A stretch of 24,355 nt of DNA from UHGV virus genome UHGV-0230427; one strand, written 5' to 3'. Every line of letters begins with the position of its first letter. Position 1 is the stretch's first letter. Origin of the DNA: a virus. The position numbers and the translations under genes are program-made. Below are positions 95 through 12,904 of this stretch, piece after piece. The notes beneath the pieces are model-generated. The model ran no database searches, was not told the DNA's origin, and saw only the letters and a program-made list of their open reading frames with translations.

Positions 95-367
95 TCATCT
101 TGCTGTCAGTTGTTTGGATTTCCGGTAGCCTGCCGCGTAAAGAGCTACGTTCGGAAGACAAGTTGAGCCTTCATATTTTCTGGTCAACGTTGTCAGTGTT
201 ATTACTTCTGCTCTCATTGCTGGTTTGCGCTTGCATTGCAAGACCACTCGAGAGGGGGTTGGTCTGTGTAGCTTGTCGGAGCTAATCGCCTCCTGACTTT
301 GCAGGTTTGCGCGACGAGCTCTACGACGAGAAGCTGAGGTGCCTTTAAATTCTGTTTTTCTGGACAT
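95..367 (-). CDS. N: N-type transcription antitermination protein (P22 gene 24-like)
   Basis: Minus-strand ORF; C-terminus ...VALYAAGYRKSKQLTAR matches recalled P22 gp24 C-terminus; Arg-rich motif (SASRRRARRAN) directly after the proposed Met start; GGAGG RBS (rc of 373-378) 5 nt upstream of the ATG at 367. The ORF track extends to 451 but the RBS and ARM position favour 367. Confidence 0.6.
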   Translation of the reverse strand: MSRKTEFKGTSASRRRARRANLQSQEAISSDKLHRPTPSRVVLQCKRKPAMRAEVITLTTLTRKYEGSTCLPNVALYAAGYRKSKQLTAR

Positions 368-466
368 AGATTCCTCCCGAATAAACTTTGGTGATGCAAT
401 CTCGAAGCTCCTCCTGAGACGGTTGCTTCGGCATTGCATCCCACAGCTCATGTGGTTGTGTGATCT

Positions 467-511
467 GGCTTTTCAGCCACGTAGTCGAGAGTTCGACGTT
501 GTTTAAAGAGC
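467..511 (-). promoter_or_regulatory. nutL candidate: boxA-like GCTCTTTAAACAACG (rc of 497-511) and boxB-like hairpin GGCTGAAAAGCC (rc of 467-478)
   Basis: Lies between candidate pL and N; shares three blocks (GCTCTTT..AACAACG, CTACGT, GCTGAAAAGC) with the nutR candidate at 2724-2769 at nearly identical spacing. Confidence 0.5.
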
Positions 512-557
512 CTGCCAGTCTGTTCCGTTTGGCTTCCAGCGTCCTGCTGACGGTTAA

Positions 558-586
558 ATAGTACGATATGTACTTTATTGGGTAAA
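558..586 (-). promoter_or_regulatory. Candidate pL with overlapping operator (OL)
   Basis: Minus-strand reading gives -35 TTTACC (581-586), 17-bp spacer, -10 TACTAT (558-563). The spacer carries AAAGTACATATCGTACT (rc of 560-576), a 15/17 match to a site in OR (2453-2469) at the same position relative to the PR candidate. Confidence 0.4.
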
Positions 587-770
587 TACGATTTGTTCTA
601 AAATAGGGTGATTTTTATAACACTTTGTATTTAATAGTGTTGTTTTTTAGCGTGGGTGTATCGCCTCGGCGATGTAAGGAGAGATCAGAATTGCGTGGTT
701 TAGTGAGTTGTATCTATTTATTTTTCAATAAATACATTTGGTTATGTGTCTTTAGGTGGGGGCGTGAGGC

Positions 771-796
771 AAAGAAAACCCGGCGCTGAGGCCGGG
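771..796 (-). terminator. Rho-independent terminator downstream of the BRO-N/DinD-like gene
   Basis: Perfect 6-bp GC stem (779-784 pairs with 791-796), 6-nt loop, then a TTTTCTTT run on the minus strand (rc of 771-778); 9 nt after the stop of the 805-1647 ORF. Confidence 0.55.
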
Positions 797-804
797 GTAT
801 GCAT

Positions 805-1647
805 TTATGGTTTTTTTTGGTCGTGCTTTGCTAGGGCTTTATGAGTTTTCTTAATGCTGCTTCTAACTTTCTGAATTTTTTCTTGGGAAAGTTTTATGTT
901 TTCAGGGGCTGTTCCAGTGTTAGAAATCATTACATTGCGAACAGATCTCCCTACGGTCTCAGCAGCATTCTCTAGTTGAGACTGTCCCTTCAGGTTCTGG
1001 TTTCTGATTCTTGCTTCTGTCTGTGTAATTCTGAATATATTGGCCGCGAGCTCTTCGCTTCCCATGAAGTCAAGCATCGTTCCATCTTTTTTAGTTAGGC
1101 CTTTTCGAGCTTTCAACTGTGAGAGATTCATATTGTACATCCCACGGTAGCCCGCATTTTGAAATAGACCATAGTCGACTACTCCGTGTTTATGGGCTAC
1201 ATGACTGAGAGTTTTCTCTCTAGATGTAATCTCGCCACGCAAATAAACTCGATTAACTGCGTCATGGTTATGATATGTAGTGTGTATTTCTGCTGCGAGC
1301 CCAGCAAAATAAGCTTGTGCATTTGCAACTTTTTGATTGCTGATGTCACCATTCATTACAATCAGATAACAAGCGAAACGAGTTAATTTAAAGTCATTTT
1401 TCGCATTTTCTGAAGGCATCTGGATGAAGTTATCGTATACAGGGATATCGAGGCTCACACATACAGATGTAGCTTTGTTAATGGCTTTCAATATCTGATC
1501 CATGCCATTATATCCAAGCATCATCGCTAAATCAGATGCAAACCAATAGGTAACACCGTTTTCTCTAGCGAAATCATCAAATGTTAACTGTGATGTGTCA
1601 TCGAAAACAGTAATTTGCCTACTCATATCACACCCGAACTTACTCAT
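805..1647 (-). CDS. BRO-N domain / DNA-damage-inducible protein D (DinD)-like protein; accessory gene at the rex-equivalent position
   Basis: 280-aa ORF with no competing frame. N-terminus (ITVFDDTSQLTFDDFARENGVTYWFASDLAMMLGY) fits the BRO-N pattern; overall architecture recalls the DinD family (assignment from memory, unverified). Same strand as cI, immediately downstream of it, followed by a terminator. Confidence 0.85.
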   Translation of the reverse strand: MSKFGCDMSRQITVFDDTSQLTFDDFARENGVTYWFASDLAMMLGYNGMDQILKAINKATSVCVSLDIPVYDNFIQMPSENAKNDFKLTRFACYLIVMNGDISNQKVANAQAYFAGLAAEIHTTYHNHDAVNRVYLRGEITSREKTLSHVAHKHGVVDYGLFQNAGYRGMYNMNLSQLKARKGLTKKDGTMLDFMGSEELAANIFRITQTEARIRNQNLKGQSQLENAAETVGRSVRNVMISNTGTAPENIKLSQEKIQKVRSSIKKTHKALAKHDQKKP

Positions 1648-1727
1648 CGATTTTCCCTTATATTAATATAATGTGGATAGTTTGTCGCCAACTCGCTAAA
1701 GTTATTCATTATGAGGTTTGCCATCCA

Positions 1728-2387
1728 TCACCCAAACGTCTCTTCAGGCCACTGACTAGCGATAACTTTCCCCACAACGGAACAACTCTCATTGCATGGG
1801 ATCATTGGGTATTGTGGATTTAGTGGCTGTAGAAACACCTGACCGCTATCCCTGATCAGTTTCTTGAAGGTAAATTCATCACCACCAAGTCTGGCTATGC
1901 AGAAATCGCCGGGCTCAACAGCTTGCTCTGGGTCAACCAGAATTAACATCCCGTCAGGAAAACTAGGTTTGGAACCTGTTGGGGCGGTCATTGAGTTACC
2001 TTCAACCTCAAGCCAGAATGCAGAGTCACTGGCTTTTTTGGTTGTGCTTACCAATCTCTCCGCATCGCCTTTGGTAAAGGTTCTGAGTTCTGGAGAGAAC
2101 ATCCCAGCCTGAACATGAGAAAAAACAGGGTACTCATATTGTTTTTTAACTGGGGCCGATGAGTATTCGCCAACAGGTGAAAATGTCCCGTCGTGGTTGA
2201 ATGATATGTTATCAATACCAAGGTATTTAAACACCACACCAATATCACTAAGAGATGGATGACGAGATCCGCGCAACCAGTGTCCAATCCCACCCTGCGT
2301 CATACCTAGCTCTTCGGCTAACTTCTCTTGAGTTATGCCGAGCTCTTTCATTCTGGATCTAGCCAGTTCATACCATTTCATTTTCAT
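1728..2387 (-). CDS. cI: CI-type prophage repressor (lambda-like C-terminal autocleavage/dimerisation domain, distinct N-terminal HTH domain)
   Basis: C-terminal ~130 aa ([21 protein letters not shown]...[14 protein letters not shown]) matches recalled lambda CI; N-terminal domain ([40 protein letters not shown]) is a different HTH. Start placed at the ATG at 2385-2387 (an in-frame ATG at 2379-2381 is also possible); the ORF track's longer ORF to 2549 would run through the operator region. Confidence 0.9.
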
Positions 2388-2497
2388 GTCCTTATTATTA
2401 CGCTCTGTATTGCAACCATCCATGCACAATGTGTATTTTTGCTTGCATTCAAAAAGTACATATTGTATTTTTTCTTCATGGTTACTATGGAGGGCAT
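2388..2497. promoter_or_regulatory. OR region: divergent PRM/PR with operator-like repeats; PR candidate -35 TTGCAT (2443-2448), -10 TATTTT (2466-2471)
   Basis: Intergenic between divergent cI and cro. AAAGTACATATTGTATT (2453-2469) is repeated 15/17 at the pL candidate; a related copy ACAATGTGTATTTTT lies at 2426-2440; GGAGG RBS at 2489-2493 precedes the cro ATG. Confidence 0.5.
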
Positions 2498-2713
2498 ATG
2501 AGCAACCTACGAAAATATCGAGAGTCACTGAATATCTCTCAAACAACACTTGCTAAGGCAGTTGGATGCACACAGGGAGCTATCGGACATTGGGAATCTG
2601 GTCGTCGCTTCCCAGACCTTAAAACATGCCGTGCTCTTGTTGCGTGTCTAAACAAGTTAGGCGCAAAAGTAAGTCTTGATGACGTGTTCCCGCCGGAGCA
2701 CAAAGCCGCTTAA
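2498..2713 (+). CDS. cro: Cro-like small HTH repressor
   Basis: 71-aa ORF divergent from cI with GGAGG RBS; HTH-like segment ([23 protein letters not shown]); position equivalent to lambda cro. The ORF track's upstream extension (2429) lacks an RBS and overlaps the operators. Confidence 0.75.
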
Positions 2714-5489: not shown

Positions 5490-5936
5490 ATGAAGCAAAT
5501 ATACATGCTTCGCAACGAAGCAATCAGAAACAACGCCATAGACGCAATACTCTCACTTCCGATCGACGACAAGTCACCTCACGAAGTCCACATTAAAGAA
5601 CCCAGGCGGAGCAATCCTCAAAACCGCCTTATGTGGGCGTTATTGCAGGACGTATCACGTCAGGTGCTTTGGCATGGAAAGAGACTTGCGCCGGAGGACT
5701 GGAAAGATCTGTTCACTGCCCTGTGGCTTAAGACCAAAAAACTGGAGCAACGAAGTGCGCCTGGTATCGACGGTGGCGTTGTCATGCTTGGCGTGCGTAC
5801 CAGCAAAATGCGAAAGGCCAGCATGACTGAGCTTATCGAAATCATGTTCTGGTTCGGCTCAGAGCGCAACGTGCGGTGGAGTGATGACTCCCGGCGAGAG
5901 TATGAATGGTCACAACGAAAAGGTAGGGCTGCATGA
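5490..5936 (+). CDS. ninB: NinB (Orf-family recombination mediator)
   Basis: 148-aa ORF with motifs recalled from lambda NinB (QNRLMWALLQDVSRQVLWHGKRL...WSDDSRREYEW); first gene of the nin region. Confidence 0.8.
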   Translation: MKQIYMLRNEAIRNNAIDAILSLPIDDKSPHEVHIKEPRRSNPQNRLMWALLQDVSRQVLWHGKRLAPEDWKDLFTALWLKTKKLEQRSAPGIDGGVVMLGVRTSKMRKASMTELIEIMFWFGSERNVRWSDDSRREYEWSQRKGRAA

Positions 5937-6460
5937 CTATCAAATCAAATACGCCAGCACACGACAAGGACTGCTGGCAAACGCCGCTTTGGCTTTTTGA
6001 TGCACTGGATATTGAGTTTGGATTCTGGCTGGATTCGGCAGCGAGCGACAAAAATGCTCTGTGCGCTCACTGGCTAACTGAGGCTGACGACGCGCTAAAT
6101 TCTGAGTGGGTAAGCCACGGTGCAATCTGGAATAACCCACCGTACAGCAATATCAGGCCGTGGGTGGAAAAAGCCGCTGAGCAGTGTATACAACAACGAC
6201 AGACGGTAGTGATGCTTGTGCCAGAGGATATGTCAGTCGGATGGTTCAGCAAGGCTCTGGAGAGTGTCGACGAAGTTCGTATTATCACTGATGGACGGAT
6301 TAATTTTGTCGAACCATCGACAGGACTGGAGAAGAAGGGAAACAGCAAAGGTTCCATGCTGCTGATTTGGCGACCGTTCATCAGTTCTCGACGGATGTTT
6401 ACTACTGTATCCAAAGCGGCATTGATGGCGATCGGGCAGGGCGTCAGGAGGGCAGCATGA
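5933..6460 (+). CDS. Phage N6-adenine DNA methyltransferase (Dam-like, orphan)
   Basis: 175-aa ORF with NPPY catalytic motif (IWNNPPYSN) and size typical of the phage Dam-type N6-adenine MTase family; overlaps ninB stop and ninE start; no adjacent restriction endonuclease gene. Confidence 0.8.
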
Positions 6461-6633
6461 GACGACAGCGACGAAGTTTCACCGACATCATCTGCGAAAA
6501 CTGCAAATACCTTCCAACGAAACGCTACAGAAATAAACGCAAGCCAATCCCAAAAGAATCTGACGTAAAAACCTTCAACTACACGGCTCACCTGTGGGAT
6601 ATCCGGTGGCTAAGACATCGTGCGAGGAAATGA
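6457..6633 (+). CDS. ninE: NinE
   Basis: 58-aa product [58 protein letters not shown] matches recalled lambda NinE; ATG at 6457 overlaps the methyltransferase stop. Confidence 0.8.
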
Positions 6634-6635
6634 CA

Positions 6636-6977
6636 ATGGATTATTCACAGTTAAGTGATTTTGAAATTAACAGAATGGTAGGAGACATAATTTTTAAAGG
6701 CCTTTGGGCATGTAAACCGGAAACATCAGGGAATAACACCAACAAATGGTATTACGGAAATGCTGATACAACTTTTGAGCCATTAAACCCTTTGCCTGAC
6801 TACTGCAATGATCCTAGCGCCTCATGGCCGATTATTGAGAAATACAGGATTTCTATCTTAGACCAGTTAACTGAATGGTGTGTGGATGCAAAAGGCGTAA
6901 GCCCAATATTTGATACCAGACCTCTCCGCGCCGCCATGATTGTCTTTCTCCTGATGCAGGACGCCAATAATGCTTAG
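6636..6977 (+). CDS. Hypothetical nin-region protein
   Basis: ORF with GAGGA RBS (6624-6628) 7 nt before the ATG at 6636 (alternative ATG at 6630); translationally coupled to neighbours; no function recognised. Confidence 0.6.
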
Positions 6978-7146
6978 CCCATCCCAATCCCTCCAATACC
7001 AGAAAGAAAGCGTCGAGCGGGCTTTAACGTGCGCTAACTGCGGTCAGAAGCTGCATGTGCTGGAATTTCACGTGTGTGAGCACTGCTGCGCAGAAGTGAT
7101 GAGCGATCCGAATAGCTCAATGTACGAGGAAGAAGACGATGAATGA
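6970..7146 (+). CDS. ninF: NinF
   Basis: 58-codon ORF (below the ORF-track cutoff) translated by hand: [58 protein letters not shown], matching recalled lambda NinF including the CxxC...CxxC motif. Confidence 0.65.
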
Positions 7147-7861
7147 GTTAATAAATGGCAATGCCATCAAAATGACAAGCATTGAAATCGCTGAGTTGGT
7201 GGGTAAGCGTCATGACAATGTGAAACGTACCATCGAAACGCTGGCTAAAAATGGTGTTATCCGGCTTCCTCAAATTGAGGATTGTGGAAGAATCAATGGG
7301 TTAGGCTTAAATCAAAGTTTTTGTGTGTATGTATTCGAAGGCGAACAAGGAAAGCGAGACAGTATTGTCGTTGTAGCCCAGTTGTCGCCGGAATTCACCG
7401 CTCGCCTTGTTGACCGCTGGCGAGAGCTTGAAGAAGCTGCGGTTAATATCCCCAAAACGCTACCGGAAGCGTTGCGCCTTGCTGCTGACCTTGCTGAGCA
7501 GAAAATGCAACTGGAAAACCAGCTCGCAATTGCCGCACCTAAAGTTGAGTTTGCCGATCGCGTTGGCGAGGCCAGTGGAATTTTGATTGGAAACTTTGCA
7601 AAGGTTGTTGGAATTGGTCCAAACAAACTGTTTGCGTGGATGCGCGATCACAAAATCCTTATTGCTTCAGGTTCCCGGCGCAATGTGCCAATGCAGGAAT
7701 ATATGGATCGCGGCTATTTCGCAGTGAAAGAAACAGCGGTCAACACAAATCACGGAATACAGATATCGTTCACCACAAAAATCACCGGGCGTGGTCAACA
7801 GTGGCTGACCAGAAAGCTGCTCGATAACGGAATGCTGAAAGTAACCGGGGAGGCTGCTTAA
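7139..7861 (+). CDS. Rha-family phage regulatory protein / KilAC-type antirepressor-like protein
   Basis: 240-aa ORF; N-terminus (MTSIEIAELVGKRHDNVKRTIETL) resembles the Rha HTH region, C-terminal half resembles antirepressor KilA-C/ANT-type domains (from recall, unverified); sits where lambda has ninG. Confidence 0.75.
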   Translation: MNELINGNAIKMTSIEIAELVGKRHDNVKRTIETLAKNGVIRLPQIEDCGRINGLGLNQSFCVYVFEGEQGKRDSIVVVAQLSPEFTARLVDRWRELEEAAVNIPKTLPEALRLAADLAEQKMQLENQLAIAAPKVEFADRVGEASGILIGNFAKVVGIGPNKLFAWMRDHKILIASGSRRNVPMQEYMDRGYFAVKETAVNTNHGIQISFTTKITGRGQQWLTRKLLDNGMLKVTGEAA

Positions 7862-11816: not shown

Positions 11817-12206
11817 ATGGCTAAGGCCAAATGGCACAAACTCCCGGCGTTCACCATTCCGCTGTTTCAAAGTGCACACGTCTACCTCGCAACAACCAGA
11901 GAACAGTTTCAGCACGCTGATAAATTCCTTGGCGGCAGCGGGGATGAGAAGCCATTCAATCTTGGGCTTGCAAGCAACTATGAAAACACTGATACGGGTG
12001 AGCGATGCTATCTGATTGGAGTATTCGATCAGCAGATCGCTACGCTCGTTCATGAGTGCGCCCACGTCTGCTTTTACGTTTGCTCTGATGTCGGCGTGAC
12101 GACAAGCCCTGAAGATGCCAACGAGACGTACTGTTACATGCTGGACAGGATGGTTAATCACTTCCTGCCATTCATTCAGGAGAAACAAGATGTATCACTG
12201 GAATAA
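11817..12206 (+). CDS. Hypothetical protein with HExxH zinc-metallopeptidase-like motif (SprT/ImmA-like signature)
   Basis: 129-aa ORF with GGAG RBS; motif ATLVHECAHVCF contains a canonical HExxH embedded in a hydrophobic helix-like context; several further Cys/His/Asp/Glu residues downstream. Family not identified. Confidence 0.65.
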   Translation: MAKAKWHKLPAFTIPLFQSAHVYLATTREQFQHADKFLGGSGDEKPFNLGLASNYENTDTGERCYLIGVFDQQIATLVHECAHVCFYVCSDVGVTTSPEDANETYCYMLDRMVNHFLPFIQEKQDVSLE

Positions 12207-12384
12207 TCAATCCCCTTATTGCCAATGCCAACGCTGCCCGTGCTGCGGGAAGATTGTTAACCAATTTACTGGCAACAATTTCTTCAAGACTGGTTATGGA
12301 TATGGTGTTGCGGGTAGCATTAATTGCTCTGGGGCTGCTGCTGAAACGACATCAAACACAGGCAAGCAGGAAGGAGCTAAGTAA
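12190..12384 (+). CDS. Hypothetical small Cys-rich protein (possible zinc ribbon)
   Basis: 64-aa ORF with AGGAG RBS (12178-12182) 7 nt before the ATG at 12190; CQCQRCPCCGK cluster; overlaps the end of the upstream ORF by 17 nt. The ORF track's longer version (12115) lacks an RBS. Confidence 0.5.
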   Translation: MYHWNNQSPYCQCQRCPCCGKIVNQFTGNNFFKTGYGYGVAGSINCSGAAAETTSNTGKQEGAK

Positions 12385-12473
12385 TGGTAATCAAAGTTTG
12401 TTCAGGCTCTCAGGGCTTCGACAACCCATCCAAATTCCGCGATGAATGGGATAAGCAAGCAGAAGGGAAATAA
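12384..12473 (+). CDS. Possible 29-aa micro-ORF
   Basis: Hand-translated MVIKVCSGSQGFDNPSKFRDEWDKQAEGK; strong AGGAAGGAG RBS (12368-12376) 7 nt upstream; start overlaps the upstream stop (TAATG); ends 5 nt before the small terminase ATG. Too short for the ORF track. Confidence 0.3.
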   Translation: MVIKVCSGSQGFDNPSKFRDEWDKQAEGK

Positions 12474-12478
12474 TCAAT

Positions 12479-12904
12479 ATGGCGACTGAGAAAAAGAAAG
12501 GTGGTCGCCCCTCTGATTATATGCCGGAGGTGGCTAATGACATTTGCGCATTGCTTTCCTCCGGTGAGAGTCTGCGCAAAGTTTGCGAACGCCCAGGAAT
12601 GCCGAGCAAAACATCAGTTTTTCGCTGGCTGGCTGAACATCAGGAGTTTCGTGACCAGTACGCGAAGGCAACAGAGACTCGGGCCGACTCTATTTTCGAA
12701 GAGATATTCGAAATTGCTGACGACGTAATCCCTGATGCCGCCGAGGTGGCAAAGGCAAGACTTCGCGTTGATACCCGCAAATGGGCGCTGGCCAGAATGA
12801 ATCCCCGTAAGTATGGCGACAAGGTAACTAATGAGCTTGTCGGCAAAGACGGAGGCGCAATTCAGATTGAAACATCACCGATGAGCACTCTATTCGGAAA
12901 ATGA
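12479..12904 (+). CDS. Terminase small subunit (Sf6 gp1-like)
   Basis: 141-aa ORF immediately upstream of and overlapping the large terminase; N-terminal HTH-like region; resembles recalled Sf6-type TerS. Confidence 0.8.
   Translation: MATEKKKGGRPSDYMPEVANDICALLSSGESLRKVCERPGMPSKTSVFRWLAEHQEFRDQYAKATETRADSIFEEIFEIADDVIPDAAEVAKARLRVDTRKWALARMNPRKYGDKVTNELVGKDGGAIQIETSPMSTLFGK

Follow-up and report, generated by a model that had tools for sequence, protein, structure and literature searches.

A DinD-family gene at the rexAB-equivalent site of a lambdoid prophage and its probable relationship with DdrC

The UHGV virus genome UHGV-0230427, a stretch of 24,355 nt that is called the window here, contained a gene for a 280-amino-acid (aa) protein between its cI-type repressor gene and its pL/N region. 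Together with its upstream spacer, the gene makes up a moron cassette, which lies in a lambdoid prophage at the position equivalent to lambda rexAB. The product is, judged by sequence, a DinD-family paralogue and no equivalog of Escherichia coli DinD. By analogy with other occupants of this site, an anti-phage role is its single most likely function. Both kinds were already known, the DinD/PDC-S13 family and the cargo of the cI–N hotspot, and the gene adds a member to each. The features that define the cassette are as follows.

805..1647, minus strand: DinD-family gene, a 280-aa open reading frame (ORF), from Pfam, NCBIfam, PHROG, PADLOC and BLASTP against DinD
~797..1726, minus strand: exchangeable cassette of spacer and gene, from blastn breakpoints against four loci (L011, L012, L013 and L014)
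1648..1727, minus strand: 80-nt spacer from the cI stop codon to the gene, with a Shine-Dalgarno sequence, a weak promoter-like pair and a palindrome, and with neither a terminator nor a LexA box
771..796, minus strand: intrinsic terminator from the terminator scan, a 6-bp all-GC stem (796-779) followed by the tail TTTTCTTT (778-771)

The DinD-family gene and its exchangeable cassette

The 280-aa protein contained a Bro-N domain at residues 29–110 (Pfam, E 6e-8, over the gathering score), and the Pfam scan of the protein gave this domain only, with no second domain. The DinD model of NCBIfam (PRK11525) was matched by residues 22–278 with 198.6 bits. This score did not reach the equivalog cutoff of 242, and the protein was therefore regarded as a paralogous family member. 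K-12 DinD (L010:7761-8585) was collinear with the protein over nearly its full length, with 33% identity across 258 aa (BLASTP, E 9e-44). The assignment in PHROGs was phrog_8036, of function unknown (E 3e-147), and the RefSeq product name of the gene in enteropathogenic E. coli (EPEC) E2348/69 was "BRO family protein" (WP_000032717.1). The hidden Markov model (HMM) of the PADLOC candidate single-gene system PDC-S13 covered residues 17–279 (E 2e-86). K-12 DinD matched the same PADLOC model (E 2e-121), so that PDC-S13 is in effect the DinD family. A preliminary description, made from the letters alone, had proposed a BRO-N-like N-terminus, a DinD-like C-terminal region and a candidate anti-phage function; Pfam Bro-N, NCBIfam DinD and the BLASTP comparison bore out both parts of the protein, and the family proved to be catalogued already as a defence candidate.

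The Shine-Dalgarno sequence AAGGGA was located at 1654-1659, 6 nt before the ATG of the gene. The choice of this start codon was supported by the N-terminal motif MSKFGCDMS, which was conserved in relatives from Yersinia, Providencia, Neisseria, and Pasteurellaceae. The N-terminal domain (approximately residues 1–118) was acidic with a pI of 4.5, and the C-terminal domain (approximately residues 131–276) was basic with a pI of 10.0. The maximum Kyte-Doolittle value in a 19-residue window was 1.11, which indicated no transmembrane segment and thus a soluble protein. Across 36 family sequences of 49–92% identity, 40 columns were invariant.

RexAB, the classic lysogen-expressed exclusion system, occupies this slot in lambda. 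When window positions 600–2500 were compared by megablast with 5426 complete E. coli genomes, 1413 matched the slot-spanning query and 10 contained the whole interval. The gene was present in these 10 genomes, with copies 100% identical and always at the same site. Lambda was found among the partial matches, with rexA-rexB located between the same two homologous flanks, and the slot is truly rex-equivalent. The right breakpoint of the alignments was at window position 1726/1727 against each of lambda (L011), Nissle 1917 (L012), a locus with an NYN-domain gene (L013), and a locus with HicAB (L014), which is 1–2 nt past the cI stop codon. The left breakpoint was at 796–800, the 5' edge of the terminator stem, and at 817 for the NYN locus.

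One cI allele (WP_096246228.1), identical in sequence, preceded three cargos: this gene, the NYN-domain gene (cI at 1996-2691 of L013), and HicAB (cI at 1766-2461 of L014). The occurrence of one allele before three unrelated cargos indicates cassette exchange within one immunity type. Further cargos of the slot were rexAB in lambda, a DUF1828 pair, DUF2335, and pairs of hypothetical genes in Shiga toxin (Stx) phages, and BstA is found at the same post-cI position on the BTP1 map. The guanine-plus-cytosine (GC) content of the cassette was 39.4%, compared with 49.2% for the whole window, which fits import from a low-GC lineage; relatives in Pasteurellaceae were found at 66–69% identity. In the Nissle 1917 slot (L012, 993-2299), a DUF1828 protein and a 185-aa protein formed a common alternative cargo of many uropathogenic E. 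coli (UPEC) and Nissle-type genomes, and this pair gave weak matches to both components of the two-gene PADLOC candidate PDC-M24, with E 5e-10 for B and E 5e-4 for A.

The stop codon of the gene was 8 nt before the intrinsic terminator, which separated the cI operon from the pL/N region. Window positions 679–800 showed 90% identity to positions 1201–1321 of the lambda locus (L011), reaching the rexB stop codon. The terminator is a shared flank of the slot and not the gene's own, because it was conserved across prophages with other cargo, including lambda, where it lies 3' of rexB. This shared terminator is presumably lambda t_imm.

The spacer contained a weak promoter-like pair, TTGGCG (-35, 1686-1691) and TATATT (-10, 1665-1670), with a gap of 15 nt. 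A consensus sigma-70 scan, which required a spacing of 16–18 nt, gave no promoter in the 80-nt spacer, and the same canonical scan was negative in two homologous loci. The locus of a Haemophilus homologue had TTGACT and TACAAT separated by 19 nt. An extended -10-like TGnTAAAAT was present in the Yersinia, Pasteurella, and Neisseria homologue loci; these motifs overlapped the Shine-Dalgarno region. A promoter of the gene's own may exist but could not be demonstrated. Just upstream of the gene, positions 1658-1671 formed a perfect 14-bp palindrome, TTATATTAATATAA, which overlapped the Shine-Dalgarno and -10-like region. It did not occur in the homologue loci of Yersinia, Pasteurella, and Microbulbifer, and no repeat or palindrome was common to the homologous loci. 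It may be an operator, a promoter element, or a chance occurrence within AT-rich DNA. No terminator was found by the scan of the spacer between cI and the gene. The LexA pattern CTGT-N8-ACAG was not found in 1648-1727 with up to one mismatch. The sole one-mismatch LexA-like site in this part of the window fell inside the ORF, and the 7 matches in the whole window, against 9.4 expected, were at chance level.

These comparisons affirmed most of what the preliminary description had said of the locus. The gene lay downstream of an S24/helix-turn-helix (HTH) repressor, 80 nt away and on the same strand; the rex-equivalent position held, as seen from lambda; the slot, as judged from the cI-to-pL interval, was hypervariable; and no LexA box was present upstream. 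The "own strong terminator" at 771-796 was present and belonged to the flank common to other cargos, lambda included. The proposed sigma70-like -10 was found as TATATT/TAATAT at 1665-1670, and the consensus promoter scan did not support it. Overall, the observation was confirmed and its interpretation was partly supported, in slot, family, and candidate status, and not in the gene having a terminator and a promoter of its own.

Relationship with DdrC and distribution of the family

The structure of the 280-aa protein was predicted with AlphaFold2 from a 36-sequence alignment, with a mean predicted local distance difference test score (pLDDT) of 79.4 and a predicted template modelling score (pTM) of 0.55. 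In the model, a beta/alpha N-terminal domain reaching to around residue 100 was followed by a long linker helix and then by a C-terminal domain built of helices. When the model was compared with the PDB by using Foldseek, the six best matches were all DdrC chains. Neither the protein nor the family profile, when searched by sequence against the PDB, gave anything useful, and DdrC surfaced through fold comparison only. The fold search of BFVD gave weak KilA-N/regulator matches only.

For the profile comparison, the DdrC sequence was taken from S1 Fig of PMC5436757 and verified against the PDB, and an alignment of 22 DdrC sequences was used. A search with the DdrC sequence gave almost only DdrC-named or unnamed metagenomic proteins, essentially from Deinococcus and Meiothermus. 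When a narrow family alignment was compared with DdrC by hhalign, the E-value was 0.005. The 123-sequence family alignment matched the 22 DdrC sequences with a probability of 88% and an E-value of 3e-6 over 122 columns, in which residues 120–245 of the 280-aa protein were aligned with DdrC residues 103–226. The identity between the 280-aa protein and DdrC was low, about 21%. The control with a reversed DdrC alignment gave an E-value of 0.027, and 20 column shuffles gave 0.083 or worse. Invariant residues coincided between the 280-aa protein and DdrC, respectively, at R137/R120, D193/D174, E199-L200/E180-L181, and G221-Q222/G202-N203.

Residues R128, R142, R164, and K170 of DdrC abolish DNA binding when mutated (PMC11347143). 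R128 corresponded to the column of K145, which was Lys or Arg in 96 of the 123 family sequences, and R164 to the column of K179, which was Lys or Arg in 77 of the 123; R142 and K170 corresponded to non-basic residues. Residues R133, R137, K182, R206, and R237 were further invariant basic residues of the family. DdrC binds pairs of nicks or double-strand breaks and contributes to UV survival, and its N-terminal domain, which is negatively charged (PMC9303277), by itself binds no DNA (PMC11347143).

From the fold, profile, and charge comparisons, DinD, including the K-12 protein, and DdrC likely belong to one superfamily, which denotes a shared superfamily and not family membership. Homologues of DdrC outside Deinococcus were said in the DdrC papers not to exist (PMC9303277), no paper linking DdrC to DinD as relatives was found in the literature searched, and Pfam had no model for DdrC or for the C-terminal domain of DinD. 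As far as could be checked, the relationship between DinD and DdrC is unreported.

The DinD-family profile matched 3358 clusters at 50% identity with E <= 1e-10, in many phyla. The long members of the family (371–444 aa) contained no extra Pfam domain. One Yersinia protein, 81% identical to the 280-aa protein, was carried unaltered by four different lambdoid prophages, whose repressors were of at least two unrelated types. Its gene was always downstream of the repressor and co-oriented with it, and two of these loci had an N-like gene just downstream. The homologue of Pasteurella multocida prophages and of phage Pmp14 directly followed an S24 repressor, and a Microbulbifer homologue with 51% identity directly followed an HTH repressor in a prophage.

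Neighbouring genes were counted in the 80 best loci from GTDB representative genomes, and upstream neighbours in 73 of the loci. The commonest upstream neighbour among these best loci was an S24+HTH repressor (7 of 73), and type ISP, MmeI, and ResIII restriction proteins, DNA methylases, and transposases were recurrent neighbours. In streptococcal satellites the family gene was located between the first gene of the element and RelE toxins. The family is indeed linked to prophage immunity regions and to mobile or restriction contexts, though not exclusively.

Two further observations were made on relatives. The first ~270 positions of the 717-position PADLOC HMM PDLC03083, "Type I specificity subunit", were a DinD-like module, which was matched by residues 29–275 of the 280-aa protein and residues 8–269 of K-12 DinD. 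This match suggests the existence of DinD-HsdS fusion proteins, and a gene with dinD and RhuM domains has been described within a Type I restriction-modification operon by Milman et al. (PMC9881135). A Pasteurella multocida prophage (L006, 9646-10900) contained, some 3 kb downstream from its DinD-like gene, an HTH gene, then a gene with a reverse transcriptase domain (RVT_1, weak match), and a second Bro-N gene. This group may be a retron-like or Abi-like module in the same early-left region.

At 99.9% identity, the window corresponds to the lambdoid prophage next to torS in EPEC O127:H6 E2348/69, and the prophage was also found in a few other strains. Coordinates of further prophage genes were transferred from the E2348/69 annotation (L001). 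The genes that flank the slot are as follows.

1728..2423, minus strand: cI-type repressor with HTH_3 and Peptidase_S24 domains (Pfam), RefSeq WP_096246228.1 in the E2348/69 locus
95..451, minus strand: N antiterminator gene (Pfam N_peptide, E 8e-32)

The repressor was co-oriented with the DinD-family gene, and its stop codon was 80 nt upstream of it. The pL/OL region was located between about 540 and 700, on the N side of the slot, and cro, cII, O, P, and ren were on the far side of cI. The RefSeq annotation of the E2348/69 equivalent of window positions 95-567 consisted of a 90-aa "hypothetical protein" and a frameshifted pseudogene. The N_peptide match was near full length on ORF 95-451, and the N gene seems to be under-annotated in E2348/69. 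An N6-adenine methyltransferase and a KilAC-domain antirepressor were encoded in the nin region (~5934-6461 and ~6800-7522), and a Rha-family regulator was encoded after the lysis genes (~12174-12698). The DinD-like gene is thus not the only candidate for a BRO/KilA-type regulator in the prophage, because the KilAC antirepressor and the Rha-family regulator are also encoded.

Possible functions of the gene

The reading that is tentatively favoured is a lysogen-expressed exclusion or defence factor that binds DNA ends or nicks and hinders incoming phage DNA. An anti-phage role was favoured because of the other occupants of the slot, the PADLOC candidate status, and the restriction-modification neighbours or implied fusions. 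Cargo of the slot elsewhere included known or candidate defence modules, namely RexAB, HicAB, and the weak PDC-M24 matches. In the proposed mechanism, the gene would be transcribed with cI in the lysogen from the repressor promoters (pRM and pRE by analogy with lambda), because no terminator was found between cI and the gene, and the transcripts would end at the shared terminator (779-796). The basic C-terminal domain would bind duplex DNA and carry the core DNA contacts, and the N-terminal domain would give a preference for nicks or ends. The protein would thereby bind DNA ends, nicks, or recombination intermediates, and may counteract RecA-type filaments on duplex DNA, an activity that has been reported for E. 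coli DinD. Such action on linear, nicked, replicating, and recombining DNA of a superinfecting phage would reduce phage replication. In that case the protein would act as an exclusion or defence factor on its own, with BstA as its analogue in position and architecture. The proposed binding of DNA breaks in this scheme draws on the behaviour of DdrC (PMC11347143) and on the activity on RecA filaments that is reported for DinD (Uranga 2011, cited in PMC4457935).

Several points weigh against this reading. Expression in the lysogen was inferred by analogy with cI-rexAB of lambda and cI-bstA of BTP1 (PMC8585504). No recognisable effector domain (nuclease, toxin, or membrane) was found in the 280-aa protein, and the way in which DNA binding would stop a phage is therefore speculative. 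The confidence of the AlphaFold2 model was moderate (pLDDT 79, pTM 0.55), and the likeness of the N-terminal domain to that of DdrC was structural only, with an hhalign E-value of 0.11, which is not significant. DdrC circularises and protects DNA, so that a protein of this kind could help a phage as easily as harm it. Many family loci were flanked by housekeeping genes, and dinD of E. coli is a chromosomal SOS gene. The ancestral role of the family was probably DNA-damage handling. In the literature searched, no experiment tied the DinD family or PDC-S13, a candidate only, to phage defence, and mentions of DinD in the literature searched for phage defence were dinD-lacZ reporters or reference lists.

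DNA repair or RecA modulation is a serious rival because of the housekeeping neighbours and the dinD SOS gene, and was rated as somewhat unlikely. The protein would be a modulator of RecA, the SOS response, or induction, or a lysogenic-conversion factor, which binds damaged DNA and restrains RecA filaments and does not act on foreign phages. It would tune the RecA*-dependent cleavage of the adjacent S24 repressor, and with it spontaneous or SOS induction, or would raise the DNA-damage tolerance of the host. This role is consistent with the full-length homology to the SOS protein DinD, the place of DinD among the RecA regulators in the list of PMC4457935, the role of DdrC in UV survival (PMC11347143), and the adjacent cI, a RecA-dependent S24 autoprotease. 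The family is also widespread outside prophages, often among housekeeping genes, and a permanent damper could be expected to be expressed constitutively or from pRM, with no LexA box. The slot, however, otherwise holds exclusion, toxin-antitoxin, and defence-type cargo and not induction regulators; the same cI allele works with unrelated cargo, so that the repressor needs no such gene; and the family also adjoins restriction-modification genes. In the 2011 work of Uranga, DinD is said to act on postsynaptic filaments bound to duplex DNA and not on the single-stranded DNA filaments that drive repressor cleavage, which was likewise counted against modulation of induction.

Two other explanations are less likely than the defence and RecA/SOS roles. 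A BRO-type antirepressor or transcription regulator, in which Bro-N binds DNA or the repressor of another prophage or satellite and causes cross-induction or control of gene expression, was considered improbable. The Bro-N domain, the RefSeq name, the KilA-N, "regulatory", and "antirepressor" proteins among the BFVD neighbours (weak E-values), and the 14-bp palindrome over the translation start region, which could be an operator, agree with it. The palindrome, however, was not conserved in homologous loci, and the C-terminal two thirds of the protein were DinD/DdrC-like with no KilAC/ANT or other antirepressor C-domain. The N-terminal domain was acidic (pI 4.5), as is that of DdrC, which alone binds no DNA, and expression of an antirepressor from the repressor operon in lysogeny would be unusual. 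A passenger gene with no selected function in E. coli, recently imported by recombination at a permissive site, was held to be highly improbable. Such an import would match the rarity of the gene (10 of 5426 genomes, with all copies 100% identical), the lower GC of the cassette (39.4% against 49.2% in the window), and the low-GC Pasteurellaceae, in which the closest diversified relatives are found once homologues from enterobacteria and Morganellaceae are set aside. Against it stand the intact ORF and the high conservation of the family (40 invariant columns in 36 sequences), the recurrence of the post-repressor position in several bacterial orders, and the maintenance of an identical Yersinia protein in four prophage backbones.

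If the gene protects lysogens, PDC-S13 becomes a validated defence family, the slot gains a further and mechanistically distinct occupant, and the long-enigmatic DinD family gains a biological role. A wider extension of the exclusion or defence reading is that DinD and DdrC are members of a single, widely distributed superfamily of sensors for DNA breaks or ends, which prophages (in the rex/bstA slot), satellites, and restriction-modification loci deploy as a constitutive nuclease-free immune module that traps the ends or nicks of invading phage DNA or blocks its recombinational repair. This extension is unlikely; if true, such a nuclease-free end-trapping module would be a defence principle not yet described. 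The DinD-DdrC link is independent of defence. It gives DinD a testable hypothesis, the binding of paired nicks or breaks, and would end the status of DdrC as a protein without relatives outside Deinococcus. The precise edges of the cassette, from the cI stop codon to the shared terminator, also provide a site for mining lysogen-expressed accessory genes.

Comparison with known systems

DinD, which came to light in the original screens for din genes, is an orphan SOS protein. E. coli DinD (PcsA; NF008573/PRK11525) has a Bro-N N-terminus and the same conserved C-terminal motifs as the 280-aa protein. The dinD gene is chromosomal, between yicC and yicG, whereas the window gene is prophage-borne in a cI operon. 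The two also differ in regulation: dinD is listed among the SOS genes under LexA control and its SOS box is known (PMC6590174), and the window gene has no LexA box. In PMC4457935, DinD is listed by the title of Uranga 2011 as a RecA-filament regulator that inhibits postsynaptic RecA filaments.

When compared with DdrC (PDB codes 7QVB, 7UDI, and 8U0G), the 280-aa protein shared the winged-helix N-terminal domain, the linker helix, and the helical-bundle C-terminal domain, as well as the contrast between an acidic N-terminal domain and a basic C-terminal one. The DdrC and DinD families are each DNA-damage-induced. The 280-aa protein carried an extra C-terminal helix (residues 255–276). DdrC is confined to Deinococcota and is controlled by the radiation/desiccation response motif (RDRM) and DdrO (PMC5436757). 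DdrC dimerises asymmetrically by domain swapping, and the dimer binds two nicks or double-strand breaks; for the 280-aa protein such a state would be hypothetical.

The BRO/KilAC/ANT antirepressors share the Bro-N N-terminal domain with the 280-aa protein. Identity as a KilAC/ANT antirepressor was rejected, as Pfam gave Bro-N only and the C-terminus was DinD/DdrC-like. RexAB fills the homologous cassette interval of lambda, which is bounded by the cI stop codon and the shared terminator. It differs from the window gene in consisting of two proteins, the sensor RexA and the membrane protein RexB, in place of one soluble protein; the two have no sequence relationship, and the PADLOC scan of the 280-aa protein gave no Rex match.

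BstA homology was rejected: no PADLOC BstA match was obtained at E-values up to 1, while BTP1 BstA itself gave 2e-124. The hhalign comparison with BstA gave a weak 65-column N-terminal match (E 0.08), and the C-terminal domains were unrelated as far as tested. An aba-like self-immunity element, which goes with BstA, was not identified for the window gene. BstA of the Salmonella prophage BTP1 is likewise a single protein of ~300 aa with an N-terminal DNA-binding domain of the KilA-N/Bro-N type and a second, C-terminal domain (PMC8585504). Its gene is located immediately downstream of cI, presumably under a common promoter, and is followed by a Rho-independent terminator, and its relatives are found behind repressors in many Gram-negative prophages (PMC8585504). 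In genetic logic, one putative DNA-binding protein encoded behind cI, the window gene is by analogy most like bstA.

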